Origin: a virus
Taxonomy: Duplodnaviria > Heunggongvirae > Uroviricota > Caudoviricetes
IMG/VR virus record: IMGVR_UViG_2740892423_000009
Length of the DNA: 6,903 bases
Reading direction: 5' to 3' (one strand)
In this document: positions 1 through 6,903 of the stretch, in pieces
Layout of the letters: each line of letters starts with the position of its first letter
Numbering within the stretch: position 1 is the first letter of the stretch
Translations under genes and position numbers: made by a program
Notes under the pieces: generated by a model
Seen by the model: only the letters and a program-made list of their open reading frames with translations
Told to the model about the DNA's origin: nothing
The model's database searches: none

Positions 1-15
1 ATCTGTTCTCCAATG

Positions 16-60
16 ACTAGTCTAAAAACTAGTATTAAGACTATCACTTATTTAAGTGAT
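16..60. repeat. two adjacent inverted repeats downstream of the 149-aa gene
   Basis: ACTAGT (16-21), loop ctaaaa, ACTAGT (28-33); ACTAGT is self-complementary. Then ATCACTTA (43-50), tt, TAAGTGAT (53-60), a perfect 8-bp inverted repeat. Could be an operator or a weak terminator; no clean U-tract follows on the minus strand. Confidence 0.4.
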
Positions 61-90: not shown

Positions 91-540
91 CTACCCAGCA
101 TCATCGTTTATGATTCTAGTGATTATGGTTTCGTATGCAGTATCACAGCAATTGCACTTATAAGAAACTTTTGTGTCTAATCCTTTATAATCTTCTAACA
201 ATCCAACTAAAACCATATCTTTGCGTTCCAGCACATTGCTTGCTTTATCTAATACAGCTTCCTTATCTCTATTCTTTTTCTTAGGAAGTTTTAATGATTC
301 TTTATAGCATTCAAGACACGCACCTTGTTTTTTAAGAGTTTTGAAAGCAATTGTTCGCGTTGTGCTATGTTTCTTGCAGGTTATAGAAACGGGTGTATGT
401 TGCCCTTTCCACGGCACAACAAAACCGTTATAGATGTACCCCAACTCATCACAACGTTTAATGGCAATAGGTTCATAGTCAAGAGGCGTTTTTCTTGTAA
501 ATCCGGTGTAGTTGATATATTCAGCAAATAAAATCTCCAT
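91..540 (-). CDS. hypothetical Cys-rich, putative zinc-binding protein, 149 aa
   Basis: SD GGAGGA 4 nt upstream of the ATG at 540-538. Motifs C-x2-H-x16-C-x2-C (ITCKKHSTTRTIAFKTLKKQGACLEC) and C-x-C-C (YKCNCCDTAY) suggest a zinc ribbon or treble-clef. Tyr/Gly-rich N-terminus (EYINYTGF, LGYIYNGF). No HNH or GIY-YIG signature I can confirm. Confidence 0.7.
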   Translation of the reverse strand: MEILFAEYINYTGFTRKTPLDYEPIAIKRCDELGYIYNGFVVPWKGQHTPVSITCKKHSTTRTIAFKTLKKQGACLECYKESLKLPKKKNRDKEAVLDKASNVLERKDMVLVGLLEDYKGLDTKVSYKCNCCDTAYETIITRIINDDAG

Positions 541-592: not shown

Positions 593-940
593 TTAGATGT
601 ATTCCATTATATACCCGGTAAATCTGAGTCCTTTAATGTAGTAATTAGTTGTGCCTACACACACCGCGCGTGCATCACCCAGACAGTTAAAACTATAAGG
701 ATTAACTACATCGACTTCTTGCCCGACACGAAAACGATACTTAGGACGTTTAGCCAATGTAGCGACACAAAACACGGTCCCTTTTTCATGATCGCGGATA
801 CATTCTTTATATTGTTTATGTTTAACTCTCTTCGCCTCAAAATCATAAGTCATTGATTCTGGACTAATGCCATTAATAAAAATACCGGAAAGCTGATCGA
901 CCGGATAAGTAGGAAATTCAGTGAAAATATTTTTAGCCAT
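593..940 (-). CDS. hypothetical protein, 115 aa
   Basis: ORF from the track with SD GGGGGT 5 nt upstream of the ATG. Protein MAKNIFTEFPTYPVDQLSGIF... contains four Cys (ECIRDH, FCVATL, FNCLGD, AVCVG). No family recognised. Confidence 0.65.
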   Translation of the reverse strand: MAKNIFTEFPTYPVDQLSGIFINGISPESMTYDFEAKRVKHKQYKECIRDHEKGTVFCVATLAKRPKYRFRVGQEVDVVNPYSFNCLGDARAVCVGTTNYYIKGLRFTGYIMEYI

Positions 941-978: not shown

Positions 979-1662
979 TTAAACGTATCTCATGCGCGAT
1001 TTAATGTGCTTATTAATGTTCTTAAGCATCATTTCCTCGTTGCTTTCCCACGATCCTAGCGTCGAATAACGAGTAGAAATTTTATCCGACTTAACGGCAA
1101 CAATTCGCTTACTCTGTTTCTGGATGCGTTTCTCTAAGCGACGTTTTGCCACCGCCGATCCATTCCTAGCGCGTTTGGTTCGGGATTTCTTAGGCTTGTA
1201 CTTCTTCATGATAAAAGTTCCTTCCTTGTTTTCTACCTTGATGAAGTTGCCGTTTTCGATGTTACGCATCATCTTACCGCCTTTGATGGCCTTAATGTTC
1301 CCGTGGGCGTCTAAGACCTTACCGTTAGCGATTGGCACTAGCTTATTGATTTTGCCACCATCGAAATAGTGTTTCAGATAGTCATCCTGACTGCCGATCT
1401 TCTTGTCCTTATCCCTTGCGCCCTTGATGAAGATTTGGTGTCTCGTCCCTGATCGGTTCTTGTAGTTGGTATTACCTACAGCTTGTTGAGTCCATCGAGT
1501 AGGTCTATCAACATTCTTGTTAATCTTCTTCTGGAGTGCTCTGGAAGCAAAGATCGCCCCTTCCCCTAGTGCCCTTTCGAATGTATCGGTTGCCTTTTCA
1601 GACCATTGCCGTAACGCTTTCTTAGTCCTTAGAGCGTTTCGTTTATTGGTACTGGTTGCCAT
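979..1662 (-). CDS. hypothetical strongly basic Lys/Arg-rich protein, 227 aa; possible nucleic-acid-binding or virion-internal protein
   Basis: SD AGGGGG 5 nt upstream of the ATG at 1662-1660. By my hand count about 57 Lys+Arg against about 19 Asp+Glu, with basic runs KKYKPKKSRTKRARNGSAVAKRRLEKRIQKQSKR. No catalytic motif recognised. Confidence 0.75.
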   Translation of the reverse strand: MATSTNKRNALRTKKALRQWSEKATDTFERALGEGAIFASRALQKKINKNVDRPTRWTQQAVGNTNYKNRSGTRHQIFIKGARDKDKKIGSQDDYLKHYFDGGKINKLVPIANGKVLDAHGNIKAIKGGKMMRNIENGNFIKVENKEGTFIMKKYKPKKSRTKRARNGSAVAKRRLEKRIQKQSKRIVAVKSDKISTRYSTLGSWESNEEMMLKNINKHIKSRMRYV

Positions 1663-1663
1663 G

Positions 1664-1834
1664 TTAGCCCCCTAATAACGAAAAGACCCCCGCCAGTGTC
1701 CTTAGCAATTGTTCATCCACGGTCATAGCCGGGAGTTCAAGCCCAAAGGACGTTAGCAGAGGTCTAATAGCTACGTTATAAGTGAGGGCGACAATCAAGA
1801 GATAACCAAAATATTTCTTAAGTTTATTCTTCAT
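1664..1834 (-). CDS. small hydrophobic membrane or secreted protein, 56 aa (not in the supplied ORF track)
   Basis: Hand translation of the minus strand gives MKNKLKKYFGYLLIVALTYNVAIRPLLTSFGLELPAMTVDEQLLRTLAGVFSLLGG*. SD AGGGGTG lies 5 nt upstream of the ATG at 1834-1832. Basic N-region plus hydrophobic core, no Cys, so not a lipoprotein. Stop TAA (1666-1664) is 1 nt from the next gene's ATG (TAACATG), implying translational coupling. Confidence 0.5.
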   Translation of the reverse strand: MKNKLKKYFGYLLIVALTYNVAIRPLLTSFGLELPAMTVDEQLLRTLAGVFSLLGG

Positions 1835-1852: not shown

Positions 1853-2131
1853 TTATTTTTGTTTGAGTATGTCGAGAACTTGGTCAAATTTAGCATCCAT
1901 CGCAACCACTTTCTTCTCTATACCGTGTAGTGTTTGTTCCATTTGGTAAACACGTTCAGCAATCTGAGTATGGTTATTCTGCATCGTCTCAAACTTCTGG
2001 TTTAACAATGCGTCGCTGGATTCCAATTTAGATAACCTATTTTCAGTTGCTAATTGATTTCGGTGAAGTCTCCAAAGACCACCGCAAATTAAGGCGATAA
2101 CACCGATACCGCCATATATAATTTCAGTCAT
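1853..2131 (-). CDS. hypothetical single-pass membrane protein with a long coiled-coil domain, 92 aa
   Basis: ATG at 2131-2129 preceded by CGGGGGCGTA. N-terminal hydrophobic helix IIYGGIGVIALICGGLW followed by RLHRNQ, then about 70 aa rich in heptad-like Leu/Ile/Val/Met spacing (LSKLESSDALLNQKFETMQNNHTQIAERVYQMEQTLHGIEKKVVAMDAKFDQVLDILKQK). Three consecutive TAA stops. Confidence 0.7.
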   Translation of the reverse strand: MTEIIYGGIGVIALICGGLWRLHRNQLATENRLSKLESSDALLNQKFETMQNNHTQIAERVYQMEQTLHGIEKKVVAMDAKFDQVLDILKQK

Positions 2132-2170: not shown

Positions 2171-2216
2171 TTAGATAAAAATAATCCCGCCTAACTCAAA
2201 AGAATTAAGCGGGATT
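2171..2216 (-). terminator. rho-independent terminator downstream of the J-like gene
   Basis: On the minus-strand transcript: stem AATCCCGC (2216-2209) and GCGGGATT (2190-2183), extendable through a U-G wobble plus UAA/UUA, with a ~10-nt loop, followed at once by ATTTTTATCT (revcomp of 2173-2182). Lies 20 nt after the J stop. Confidence 0.6.
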
Positions 2217-2235
2217 AATTATTAAAATTAAATTT

Positions 2236-5200
2236 TTAAGAAACAGTAATACCCGTAGTAGCTTTTTTAGTTACCATTACAGTTAAATCACTGATCCATG
2301 TGCTAGGCGTCCAGTTGTTGATTGCGCTTGATTGCACTTCAAAGGTCAAGGTCACAGCACCTTTACCCGCTGGCATATCAATAACACCTGAGTAAAGACC
2401 AGTATTACCGCCATACGCCCTATTATACAACTCTGACCCATTCTTACGAACAATCAGGCGACAGGTGTCGTAATAGGTATTATTGTTCGACCCTTCACGC
2501 GCTCGCAATCCACCAAAACTAATTGCCGGAATAACGATTTGACGATCGAACTTGTGATCATCTTCAACGCGAACGGTTACTGTACCTTGCGGATAGCCAC
2601 CATAACCATTATCAACGTTAACATCACGGTGTGGGAACTTACGACCAATCACCTTAACGAAATCACCCTTAACCTGAGTAGCTTCAAGCATACCCTTAAT
2701 AACACAGCTAGAGTTAATCGTGACGTTGTTCAGAGTACCGGAATCAGCCGTGATATTACCTTTAACGGTAGCGTTCATGAACGTAGCACTACCGTTCTTA
2801 TTGATATGCCATCCGGTAGATCCGTTCCAGTTGGAAGACTGGATATAGTTACCGATTTTAGCGTTATCAATTGCGCCATTTACAATCTTGGCGTTGGTGA
2901 TCGCGCCGTCTTGGATTTTCGCTGAATTGATCGCAGCATTGCCAATTTTAGCCGTGGTGATACTAGCATCAGTAATCTGTGCTGATCCGATTGAGGCATT
3001 ACGAATCATCGCATTATCGAGATAAACCTTGTTACCTTCGATACCAAACGGGCAAACATCGGTCCCGTTCTGCGGAGCTACAGCAATTTTATCAGCCGTA
3101 AAGATGATTTTAGTCGGTTGTGCCGGATCGTTAGTTGCGCTCATGTGAATGCCAGCCACGCGACCATCTGCATTAACTGCTAGATTGTATTTGCTGTTAA
3201 TGGTTCCCTTCAAAGCATCGATCTTAACGTCCGCTTCCTGATTCACACCAGCAATCTTGCCATCCATTTCTACCCGAACTTGGTCAATCTTACTTGCGCT
3301 TGCTGCTTCACTGGTAGCAATAGCTTGTTTCAGGGTTGTAGCGGAGGCGCTAACTTCTTTGGTGATATCGCCTTTCAGTTCAGCTTTAACCTGATCAATC
3401 TTAGTTGAACTTGCCTTATCACCAGAAGCAATCAGACTCTTTAAGGTATCGGCTGAGGCTTGAACAGTTTTACCCGTCTCGGTAGTGATTTGCTTATGCA
3501 TTGCATCAATTTTAGCATCGGCATTAGCGCCAGCTTGAGCAATAGCATCAGCGATGGTTTCATCTAAGCGATCTTGTAAACCAATCAGGTCTTCCAGTGC
3601 TTCTTTGTCCTGATCGTCCCAGCTAATGGTAGATTTCATTTGCATGAAATACGGTTCAGACCAAACAGCATCATCCATACCGAAAATATCGTAGTGAGCA
3701 CCACGGATATAATAATCACCGTCAGCAATATCAAAGGAAGTATGGCTAACACTATTCGTGCTTACTGCCCTTGCATCTGAGAAAGTGTTGTCGGTTGCAT
3801 ACTGGATGATTGACCCTGCATAGTCATGTTCTACGTCATCCGCCCAGCTAACAAACGCAGTATTAAAGCCACCACGCGCACTAAAACCTTTCATTGGCTT
3901 ATGTTGTGGGTTGATAGCCACTAAACGCGCTGGGGCGCTCTCTGAGTTGTTATAGCCCTTAGCTGATACTTCTACCGTCAGTTGACGCGAAAGGCCGTTA
4001 AACTGGTTCATATCAAGCGTATAAGTCCATGATTCAGGATCGCGGGTACGGTACTGAATAGACTTACCAGCCTTGTTAGTCACCTTGATAATGTATGCTT
4101 CAAACAGGTCACTAAACTTGTTAGTTTCACCGTTGATCATCACATCTAATTGTTGCTGGTTTTCCCATTCGATAATCAGATCATTACCTTCGAAAGTTCC
4201 TGGCGTGCTACCCTGATTTTTGATTCGAATAACCGGAGTCGGCAATTCATAGGTAACGGTAGGATTCTGGTTAACCAGTTCTACCCAATCGGATCGCGCG
4301 ATGATACCGAAAGCACAAACTCGATAATCGTAGGAACGATCTTTTGCCAGTGCATTGACACTGAAAATTTGCTGTGAAGTCTGTCCCAACTTAATCCAGT
4401 TAGGTGATCCGCTTACACGGTAATCAATCTGGAAGCCGTAGCGGTTAAAATCTTCCGGTGCATCCCATGTCAAAGTAACGTTTTTACCGTAAATCGTCTC
4501 GCCAGTTGCCTTAATTCTGAAATTAGTAGGCTTCTGTACTGTCATTGAATCCGGTAAACCACTTGGTCTATTGTCTGGAGTTGCCGCATAGTTCAGGTCA
4601 GTATAAACCTGAGAATTATATTCTGTAGCGGTGATAGTCATCATCCCAGCAATACCAGAATCAATAGAACGATCAATTGCGGTAATACGCCAAAGTGAAT
4701 TATTCAGTTTCAATTCATCATAGGTTACGCTGATAACGTCCCAAACTTCGGCAGTGAATGCGTCAGTAGTCATAAAGCTGATAACCTGAGTGATACGAGA
4801 TTTATTTCGTTCTACACTCGCAAGTTTATCAATCTGGGCTTTAGACTTAACAAAACGATATTCAATATCTTTAGCGATAATTCGACCATCTTGACGAATA
4901 GTAGCATCGTTTTCAGCATCAGCCGGATAACGTAGCATTTGCTCGGAATAGTCAATTGATGGTTCCTGATACATCGCGTTAATGGTATTGAAATAACCGT
5001 TAGTGCCACCTGTTTTCAGTGATACCTTACCCATCATGATATTGTCTTCATTGAAGGTATGCTTAACAATATCAGGAGCATCCAGTTTCAGGGTAATTCT
5101 TCCGAAGGATTCGAACATCACCCCGCCGAAAGTCTGCATAAGGCTAGTTAAGTTCTCTTTAAAGCTGGCGTTCGGATCACATGCACCGTTTGAATGCAAA

Positions 5201-6012
5201 TCCATCTGGCGTACTTGCTTACGTACTTTCAGGAATGAATCAACGTTAATGTTTTCAATTGGTACGGATAAGCCATATTTTTCATTTGTTAGGTAGTGGA
5301 AAATCTGGTCCACGCCGTTAGTGCTAGCCTCAATAGCATTGGTTTCAAGGTTACGAATCTTTAAGCCCATAACATCGACTGCCACTTGGCTATTTGGTTG
5401 AAGGATATCAACACCAGCAGCAAGAGATTTGTCATCACGACGTAACACAATACACATGGTTGCAATGCCGTTACCCTTGTAAGCATCGGTCCAGTCTGAG
5501 CCTAAATGCTGTTTTGCCAGTGACAAAGCGGTGTTAGGATTCTTACCCGTGCGGAACTCAACCTCCAACACTTTCCGGTATTCTTCTTTAATGTTGCCCT
5601 TATCGAGAATGCCATCACGGATCGTCATGTTCTTACCAACAAGAACATTTTTATTATCGATAAACAGTGCTTTGTAGTGGTCGATTTCACCCTCTGCTAC
5701 AGCGAAGATTTGCACTAACTTATTGTTTTCTCTTTTAGAAATTGCTTTGTAAACGCAGTTTGTACCAGTACGGGTAACACCGAAAAGAACGGGTAATACT
5801 GTCTTCGGATCGTTTGATGTTCCTAGTGTCACCGCATTATCTGGGCTTTGTACTTTAGGTGTTTTTGGTGCGCCTACAGTGGAAGCGATCAAGGTCATTG
5901 CACCAGCAGCCATACCGATAGCGACTGCGGTCATAACAGAAAATGTTGCGGCTGCCGCCATCCCCGCCGAAGCACCAGCGATCACCGCGCCTACCAATAT
6001 TTCAAATCCCAT
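2236..6012 (-). CDS. central tail fibre / host specificity protein, lambda gpJ family, 1258 aa
   Basis: Long uninterrupted ORF with SD GGGGGTGA 3 nt upstream of the ATG. Residues ~495-790 form three tandem FN3-like segments (e.g. [28 protein letters not shown]...YDYRVCAFG). Residues ~940-1000 ([32 protein letters not shown]...[12 protein letters not shown]) and the C-terminal ~180 aa ([17 protein letters not shown]...[12 protein letters not shown]...[16 protein letters not shown]...[16 protein letters not shown]) resemble the equivalent lambda J regions as I recall them (lambda: SGTLSNVTIAENCTINGT...DDHPFDRQIVVLP...VDMPAGRGNVILTFTL...VQVMVIKKQALGISVV). Confidence 0.93.
   Translation of the reverse strand: [1258 protein letters not shown]
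2848..2982 (-). repeat. about 30-bp in-frame tandem repeats encoding decapeptide fibre repeats I-x-x-A-K-I-x-x-G-A
   Basis: Protein [43 protein letters not shown] (residues ~1011-1055). DNA shows recurring ttttagc / atcttggcg / attttcgctg / attttagccg units. Confidence 0.6.
3178..3615 (-). repeat. in-frame degenerate repeats encoding an Ala-rich coiled-coil segment of the J-like protein
   Basis: Protein repeats ...[11 protein letters not shown]... / ...[17 protein letters not shown]... / ...[17 protein letters not shown]... / ...[12 protein letters not shown].... Matching DNA repeats on the + strand, e.g. ggtcaatcttacttgcgcttgc (~3281), gatcaatcttagttgaacttgc (~3393), catcaattttagcatcggcattagc (~3505). 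Confidence 0.6.
5866..6000 (-). other. hydrophobic Gly/Ala-rich N-terminal segment of the J-like protein (residues ~5-49), predicted membrane-like or helical
   Basis: Translation [45 protein letters not shown] has no charged residue between E4 and K50. This is not how lambda J begins, from memory. Confidence 0.5.
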
Positions 6013-6477: not shown

Positions 6478-6822
6478 TTATTTCTTAGAGCTAAACCACT
6501 TCGACTCGCTTTGCCACTTCCCGGCACGAGAGAAGAATAGATCGTTCTCGTTTCCAACATAGGATCGGTGGATACCATCGGAGGCATGACTACGAGCGTT
6601 TTTATCTAGAACTTCCCAGATACTATTAAGCTGAAATTCTGATTCGTTTTTACACTCATCATCTTCATGTTCGATGTTAATACCGATGGAATCGACTACC
6701 CCACGGAAAACAGGGTAAGTAGTTTCAACCTTGCCCGTGTTGGGGTTAAGGAAAACCATCTCGATTTTCACATCAGATTTATCGAATTGCTTGTTTCGAA
6801 TCAGGCTAATTGTTGTGGTCAA
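6478..6822 (-). CDS. hypothetical tail-tip assembly protein, 114 aa; possibly a stand-alone N-terminal (MPN-like) half of a gpK-type protein
   Basis: ORF from the track. Its first codon is TTG (revcomp of 6820-6822), immediately after an in-frame TAG, with GGTGG about 10 nt upstream. Internal GTG/ATG starts lack a good SD. No clear JAMM HxH motif seen, so the MPN assignment is positional inference only. Sits directly upstream of the NlpC/P60 gene. Confidence 0.5.
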   Translation of the reverse strand: MTTTISLIRNKQFDKSDVKIEMVFLNPNTGKVETTYPVFRGVVDSIGINIEHEDDECKNESEFQLNSIWEVLDKNARSHASDGIHRSYVGNENDLFFSRAGKWQSESKWFSSKK

Positions 6823-6903
6823 CTAAAACTGGCCACCGCGTTAGAGTTTTTCCAGTATCGGTTTTCTGATTCGTTTGGTGGTAACCCACCATTATATTCG
6901 TGC
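6819..6903 (-). CDS. 3' end of an upstream tail gene (5' part lies beyond the window edge); possibly a gpL-like minor tail protein
   Basis: Minus-strand frame open from the window edge to a TGA at 6819-6821, translating ...HEYNGGLPPNESENRYWKNSNAVASFS*. The stop overlaps the TTG start of the next ORF by 2 nt. Function guessed only from position upstream of the gpK-like/J-like genes. A second frame is also open over these 81 nt, so the frame choice is tentative. Confidence 0.3.
   Translation of the reverse strand, partial: HEYNGGLPPNESENRYWKNSNAVASFS

Follow-up and report, generated by a model that had tools for sequence, protein, structure and literature searches.

In the usual order of neck genes, Ad1-Hc1-Ne1-Tc1, the gene for the tail completion protein (TCP, Ne1) lies between those for head closure and for the tail terminator (PMC4362835). 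The solved case is gp51 of phage 80alpha (PDB 9MU2, chain P), which its authors equate with lambda gpZ, SPP1 gp16.1 and HK97 gp10; it is a monomer within the neck lumen that turns a positive face towards the DNA, stacks the aromatics of an extended loop on the last base pair of the packaged molecule and holds the terminal phosphate with an arginine (PMC11661146). The same source describes an extra beta domain at the apex of the predicted gpZ structure, and lambda Z- particles that look normal and are about 500-fold less infectious (PMC11661146). SPP1 lacking gp16.1 joins heads poorly and ejects its DNA outside the cell, with a titre ~100-fold lower (PMC11099176). In lambda, gpZ was found in virions by mass spectrometry, and its location has been resolved in no lambda structure. 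The TCP of T5, p143, is reported on the tail tip, and its own authors regard it as a structural outlier.

Against this background we analyzed a stretch of viral DNA of 6,903 nucleotides, referred to here as the window, in which ORF 979..1662 specifies a strongly basic protein (the target). We estimate at roughly 0.8 the probability that this ORF encodes the TCP (Ne1) of the prophage from which the window comes, as a divergent homolog of lambda gpZ; this figure applies to family and role, and our confidence in any exact location within the virion is lower. Counterpoints to this reading are that the target has no Pfam match, that its direct PHROG match is weak and that its gene position is atypical. 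The target gene and its surroundings comprise the following features:

593..940, minus strand: gene for a 115-aa protein that accompanies the TCP gene as its conserved downstream partner in every enterobacterial relative

979..1662, minus strand: gene for the 227-aa basic protein, probably a divergent gpZ/HK97-gp10-type tail completion protein (TCP/Ne1)

1664..1834, minus strand: 56-aa hydrophobic small ORF, conserved upstream neighbor in E. coli and Salmonella relatives, with a weak phrog_2024 match

1668..1672, minus strand: Shine-Dalgarno-like run GGGGG inside the end of the 56-aa ORF, five bases from the target ATG

1853..2131, minus strand: gene for a 92-aa, lysis-like or membrane protein with an N-terminal transmembrane segment (hydropathy window 1-22) and a coiled coil

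2182..2217, minus strand: terminator-like hairpin (16-bp stem and T-run) between the tip gene and the 92-aa gene

2236..6012, minus strand: gene for a 1258-aa lambda J-like tail tip or receptor-binding protein, directly upstream of the cassette (Pfam Ig_GpJ_C 7e-34, Phage_Tail_Tip 7e-21)

The window is an IS-flanked piece of an E. coli prophage, its left end (1-95) being IS2 and its right end (~6808-6903) an ISEc52-like element of the IS3 family. The right-hand element cuts the hub gene, leaving in ORF 6478..6822 no more than the C-terminal part of a 217-aa phiJL001-gp84-like hub; the source genome therefore carries a degraded prophage copy. The 6.7 kb between the two elements are 100% identical to a prophage in E. 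coli HCP5S3_I4, and 52 of 5,426 complete E. coli genomes contain at least 80% of this segment. No match was obtained when the target was compared with 50,697 phage records by tblastn, or the window with plasmids by megablast.

An uninterrupted relative from E. coli strain 39EVA (L002) gives the gene order of the whole element: a GpA-type large terminase, a gpW-like 165-aa protein, portal, capsid, a 96-aa FII-like protein and a 140-aa protein; then tube-like genes, a fiber, tube, a Gp38-like adhesin, chaperones, tape measure, distal tail protein and hub; and finally DUF6950, the 1258-aa J-like tip, the 92-aa and 56-aa proteins, the target, the 115-aa protein, Peptidase_M15_3 and a serine recombinase. 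This intact prophage occupies about 1.22-1.25 Mb of NZ_CP138416.1, and its tape measure gene lies at L002 27094-29526 (minus strand). With this neck and tail set (GpA terminase, gpW-like, portal, FII-like, gpU-like, tube, TAC, TMP, DTP, hub and J), the prophage is a lambda-like, long-tailed one. It shares with lambda the GpA terminase, the gpW-, FII-, gpU- and V-like genes, and a J-like tip carrying the gpJ C-terminal domain.

The target ORF begins with ATG, ends with TAA and is labeled only 'hypothetical protein' in RefSeq. The first-pass annotation had counted some 57 Lys and Arg against some 19 Asp and Glu in a 227-aa protein, and both counts are exact (K36 + R21 = 57, or 25.1%; D9 + E10 = 19). 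The extreme positive charge that it described is equally well founded, with a net charge of +38 and a pI of 10.77. This charge is no accident: the target and its three orthologs take the top four places in basicity among the 132 ORFs, each 100 aa or longer, of four related loci. Pairwise dN/dS was 0.05-0.17 when the gene was compared with orthologs of 99%, 74% and 57% protein identity, and the target is thus a real, conserved prophage gene under strong purifying selection. Its product has neither a transmembrane segment nor a signal sequence nor a lipobox. High positive charge is a trait of the whole family, with pI values of 10.2-12.0 in 21 of 21 aligned members. In size and charge the target resembles lambda gpZ (227 versus 192 aa, 25% versus 24% K+R, pI 10.8 versus 12.0), and such a charge would suit contact with DNA and with a negatively charged tail lumen. 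Extreme basicity in a phage ORF can accordingly be a normal signature of a TCP and is not by itself the mark of an effector.

Direct comparison of the target with family databases gave a single, weak match, to phrog_1924 'minor tail protein' (residues 28-181, E 4.9e-4). The target remained below the gathering cut-off of PF06763 Minor_tail_Z (23.9 bits), and a Pfam search at E up to 0.1 yielded no family, DNA/RNA-binding, histone-like, nuclease and toxin domains included. Its close family is tiny, with 6 clusters among 5.8 billion proteins searched and 12 representatives among 1.84 billion; nine of 15 family members match phrog_1924 independently, among them P0017 over its full length at 2.4e-33. 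When the full-length alignment (A2) was used to search for homologs, low-complexity, K-rich word matches crowded out the signal and only 12 proteins came back. Trimmed to the conserved N-terminal core, the search yielded 1,096 proteins, ~200 aa long and chiefly alpha- and beta-proteobacterial. PF06763 was matched by 13 of 60 sampled superfamily members (E up to 0.01), and P0058, P0115 and P0116 score above its curated cut-off along their entire length (24.7-27 bits).

To guard against circularity, two profiles were built separately, one from enterobacterial and intermediate sequences (A6) and one from 48 alpha- and beta-proteobacterial sequences including PF06763 members (A7). Aligned with hhalign, they matched with a probability of 99.0% (E 6.4e-18, 112 columns). 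An HMM made from A7 only, run on three prophage loci, singled out the target ORF as the sole match every time (E 8e-9 to 2e-8; 8.5e-9 for the target itself), while the next-best ORF had an E of at least 0.18. The bridge to lambda is provided by gpZ, which matches both phrog_27 'tail completion or Neck1 protein' (3e-69) and phrog_1924 (1.9e-4), and by P0116 and P0058, whose full-length matches are likewise to phrog_1924 (~1e-45) and phrog_27 (~5e-11). Against the single lambda gpZ sequence, hhalign was no more than suggestive, giving 41% for profile A5 (E 2.8e-4) and 62% for A7 (E 7.4e-5), covering only the N-terminal 39-71 columns; the 21-sequence profile A3 found nothing in the same comparison (probability 0.13), and PDB sequence searches with profiles A1 and A5 returned only noise. 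The distant members carry the motifs IDRPTxFT, QxxYL..F.GG, P, [Y/H/F]GN[I/L], RLVAIK and GSW, and the invariant or near-invariant columns are P54, T55, T58, Q92, Y95, L96, P110, G121 and N122. These comparisons place the target, as a remote member, in the gpZ-like TCP superfamily formed by phrog_1924 and phrog_27. The N-terminal helix region of gpZ and of the target can tentatively be aligned at profile level and phrog_1924 is common to both, whereas pairwise identity is undetectable and the basic run lies elsewhere in the chain.

An AlphaFold2 model of the target (m221cb728e2f7), computed from a 60-sequence alignment, had a pLDDT of 76 and a pTM of 0.60. Its parts correspond to the gene as follows:

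1513..1644, minus strand: long N-terminal alpha-helix, residues 7-50 (pLDDT above 90), the region aligned by hhalign with the lambda gpZ N-terminus

1294..1512, minus strand: conserved core, residues 51-123, with DRPTxWT/FT, a beta-hairpin at 62-79, the QxxYL helix at 92-101, P110 and [H/Y/F]GN[I/L] at 120-123

1105..1206, minus strand: K/R-rich stretch KKYKPKKSRTKRARNGSAVAKRRLEKRIQKQSKR, residues 153-186, predicted to form two helices; a clade-specific insertion

985..1050, minus strand: C-terminal alpha-helix, residues 205-226 (pLDDT 86-94), packing on the N-terminal helix, a TCP hallmark

The middle of the model (residues ~81-160) has a pLDDT of 54-70; a beta element at 140-153 is less confident, and a strand follows at 187-191. 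Two long antiparallel terminal helices and an apex of beta-hairpin and loop make the predicted fold that of a TCP, and the core at residues 51-123 would probably form this apex, turned towards the DNA end and the tape measure protein. A Foldseek search of the PDB with this model found no match, so the structural line of evidence is moderate. Among viral predicted structures (BFVD), the top match had a probability of 1.00 and TM scores of 0.53/0.57, and the named matches near the top were mostly 'HK97-gp10, putative tail-component'. Foldseek on a predicted structure was a check that the first-pass annotation had proposed. The Lys/Arg-rich stretch to which that annotation drew attention does exist, with basic helices predicted at H159-166 and H170-183 (pLDDT about 70-83), but is no part of the conserved core: its 34 residues are absent or short in most distant family members, and the alignments mark it as a variable-loop insertion confined to the enterobacterial clade and a handful of other members. 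In the enterobacterial clade it would enlarge the basic surface.

The superfamily groups the target with HK97 gp10, SPP1 gp16.1 and 80alpha gp51. Of these, 80alpha gp51 (HK97 gp10 family) shares with the target a positive surface and the same terminal-helix architecture. It is half as long, and the target adds a beta element, as noted for gpZ, and basic helices at the apex; identity is 11%, the target has no Pfam HK97_gp10 match, and 80alpha packages by headful whereas the target prophage is of the cos type. The phrog_1924 clade, ~1,100 mostly alpha- and beta-proteobacterial proteins of ~200 aa (for example Rhodobacter phage RcCronus gp44), has DRPTPFT, QAxYL, GG, P and YGN[IL] in common with the target, and all are basic. 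Identity to the target is 16-24%, and the target has extra insertions at residues ~80-91 and 153-186. T5 p143 (phrog_3725) resembles the target in being of 255 aa, called a TCP/Ne1 and probably monomeric. Kinship with it was rejected, as hhalign of profile A5 against p143 gave a probability of 0.11 and p143 matches only phrog_3725.

What sets this gene apart is its position. The lambda gpZ gene lies between FII and U, whereas the target gene lies outside the corresponding Hc1/FII-Tc1/gpU slot, after the J-like tip gene, behind a terminator-like hairpin and among lysis-like genes. The canonical slot is empty, the 96-aa FII-like gene overlapping the gpU-like 140-aa gene by 17 nt. A second, canonical TCP was sought in the neck module and among all ORFs of L002 and two further loci (L003 and L005) and none was found; for a phage type in which a TCP is required, the target is thus the sole candidate. 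The 140-aa protein encoded in neck position (L002 35763-36185, minus strand) is acidic and unannotated, without a match in Pfam or PHROG; at 28% identity to lambda gpU over 94 aa and a pI of 4.55 versus 4.05, it is probably the tail terminator of the prophage.

Displaced genes of this kind recur among the distant members, whose gpZ-like genes are located as follows:

L012, 1616-2161: gpZ-like gene

L015, 9001-9609: gpZ-like gene

L016, 9001-9603: gpZ-like gene

L019, 10001-10561: gpZ-like gene

L006, 13965-14564: gpZ-like gene (RcCronus gp44)

In L012, L015, L016 and L017/L019 the gene stands directly upstream of terS/GpA-terL, the position characteristic of the phrog_1924 clade, whereas the enterobacterial genes follow the tip gene and have lysis-like neighbors. 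As the last gene of RcCronus it adjoins the right cohesive end, RcCronus-type phages having 13-nt 5' overhangs; in DCP80 its place is between a tip-like gene and the endolysin. An empty canonical slot accompanies the displaced gene in RcCronus, L015 and L019 as well, and the sampled hosts of the lineage are all lambda-like GpA/cos-type phages, L019 with a contractile sheath. The clade and the target thus have in common a cos/GpA-terminase phage, an empty canonical TCP slot and a gene outside the neck block, and on the nine loci compared displacement appears to be general for the phrog_1924 lineage. As to DCP80 itself (L007, PQ671644.1), the 141-kb record is classed as a T4-like Gaprivervirus and has motA and ndd nearby. 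Its region 6967-13621 is a siphovirus-style block consisting of a ~1250-aa tip-like gene, endonuclease VII, the gpZ-like gene, a 99-aa partner and the endolysin. Possibly the genome is mosaic, or the assembly chimeric.

By analogy with 80alpha gp51, SPP1 gp16.1 and lambda gpZ, one or a few copies of the target protein would be added late to the tail and would lie in the lumen at the head-tail junction. There, the apex would touch the end of the packaged, cos-ended DNA, while the hairpin and helices would bind the N-termini of the tape measure trimer, so positioning the DNA for exit. At infection the protein would leave the tail with the tape measure, ahead of the DNA, and it would be needed for infectivity. 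Placement in the neck lumen is an extrapolation from the single solved case. It is conceivable, if rather unlikely, that the phrog_1924 lineage, its enterobacterial branch included, represents a functionally specialized 'cos-end cap' whose gene has left the neck module in all nine loci sampled, either for the stretch just before cos/terS/GpA-terL or for the lysis region behind the tip gene. Were this so, the displacement may have to do with independent regulation or stoichiometry, as one copy per virion is expected. In the enterobacterial branch, the poly-basic, helical 34-aa insertion together with the conserved 100-115-aa partner might add a role, for instance a grip on a longer piece of DNA within the tail, or protection or escort of the DNA end on its way into the cell.

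The target would still be a TCP homolog if its location or role differed from that of 80alpha gp51, whether at the tail tip or as a cos-end-specific DNA-binding or packaging accessory, and we regard this as improbable. The tip is suggested by the adjoining J-like gene, by the weak pb9 B-domain match of the distal tail protein and by the position of p143 at the tip of T5; the packaging role by the phrog_1924-type genes upstream of terS/GpA-terL (L012, L015, L016, L019) and by the RcCronus gene next to the right cos end; and either is made easier by the unresolved location of gpZ in lambda virions. However, the predicted fold matches that of a TCP of the neck lumen, gene position is weak evidence for where a protein resides, and the T5 precedent is an outlier that belongs to a different PHROG and shows no sequence similarity to the target (hhalign 0.1).

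Less probable still is that the target is a non-structural, nucleic-acid-binding effector (histone-like, nuclease or RNA-binding, host-takeover or phage-interference) in a moron cluster, the role for which the first-pass annotation had made it a candidate. In its favor are the basic charge, the location after the tip gene and behind a terminator-like hairpin, and the bare RefSeq label. Yet homology and fold both point to the TCP family, and homology to a known structural protein is what that annotation had itself set against the effector idea. Moreover, PADLOC models matched neither the target nor its four neighbors, Pfam gave no DNA/RNA-binding, nuclease or toxin domain, the low dN/dS speaks for constraint on the gene, and the phage would otherwise be left with no TCP candidate. 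What holds of the proposed nucleic-acid binder is its spirit, a virion-internal protein that would contact DNA; what does not hold is its substance as an effector.

That the gene belongs to an accessory cluster behind the tail genes is right as to place, after the tip gene, but not as to character: the five-gene block there keeps a fixed order in E. coli and Salmonella prophages down to 57% identity, and it is therefore no variable moron cluster. The coupling to an upstream micro-ORF that had been proposed is real in the sequence. The TAA stop of the 56-aa ORF occupies 1664-1666 and a single base (1663) separates it from the target ATG (1660-1662), and because of this one-base gap and the GGGGG run, translational coupling of the two is plausible. 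A search for a sigma-70-like promoter of the 92-56-227-115 aa cassette found none, and an Rfam search of the window no RNA family. The 92-aa gene keeps its position in E. coli and Salmonella relatives, its product having only weak coiled-coil matches in Pfam. The 115-aa protein, without a match in Pfam, PHROG or PADLOC, has a 99-aa counterpart in DCP80 at 29-30% identity.

The least probable reading, by a little, is that of a lysis cassette component such as a lysis regulator or an envelope-disrupting cationic protein: the membrane-like 92-aa and hydrophobic 56-aa neighbors, the Peptidase_M15_3 gene two genes downstream in relatives (L002 19580-19933) and the proximity of homologs to an endolysin or lysozyme gene in DCP80 and L012 would fit it, but the target has no transmembrane segment, signal sequence or lipobox, its homology and fold indicate a TCP, and in most distant relatives its gene adjoins the terminase and not lysis genes.

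With the target read as a TCP, it is a previously unannotated, divergent member of a known family, distinguished by its atypical gene position and its clade-specific basic insertion. The value of the assignment lies mainly in annotation: ~1,100 database clusters and the copies in ~50 complete E. coli genomes, now labeled 'hypothetical protein' or vaguely 'minor tail protein', become assignable to the tail completion protein family. TCPs are poorly understood, and comparison within this clade, which consistently keeps its gene apart from the neck module and whose hosts are always GpA/cos phages, could help to address whether gpZ-type TCPs recognize the cohesive DNA end; with nine loci, this is a modest point.

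Some smaller observations concern the rest of the window. A second strong terminator-like hairpin at 558-579, bidirectional, GC-rich and with an 8-bp stem, follows the 115-aa gene, and together with the hairpin at 2182-2217 it brackets the 92-56-227-115 aa gene block. With the 92-aa and 56-aa proteins upstream and the M15 peptidase downstream, the arrangement resembles a lysis cassette in which the TCP gene is embedded. The antisense, plus-strand ORFs 1124..1369 and 1517..1675 were treated as spurious. Finally, the 149-aa product of an ORF at 91-540 (minus strand) carries a CapR homology domain (Pfam 2e-7) and resembles HNH/endonuclease PHROGs (3e-13). This ORF is missing from most related prophages, which match the window from 651 onward, and it looks to be an insertion of the homing-endonuclease type, placed between the genes for the 115-aa protein and the M15 peptidase.
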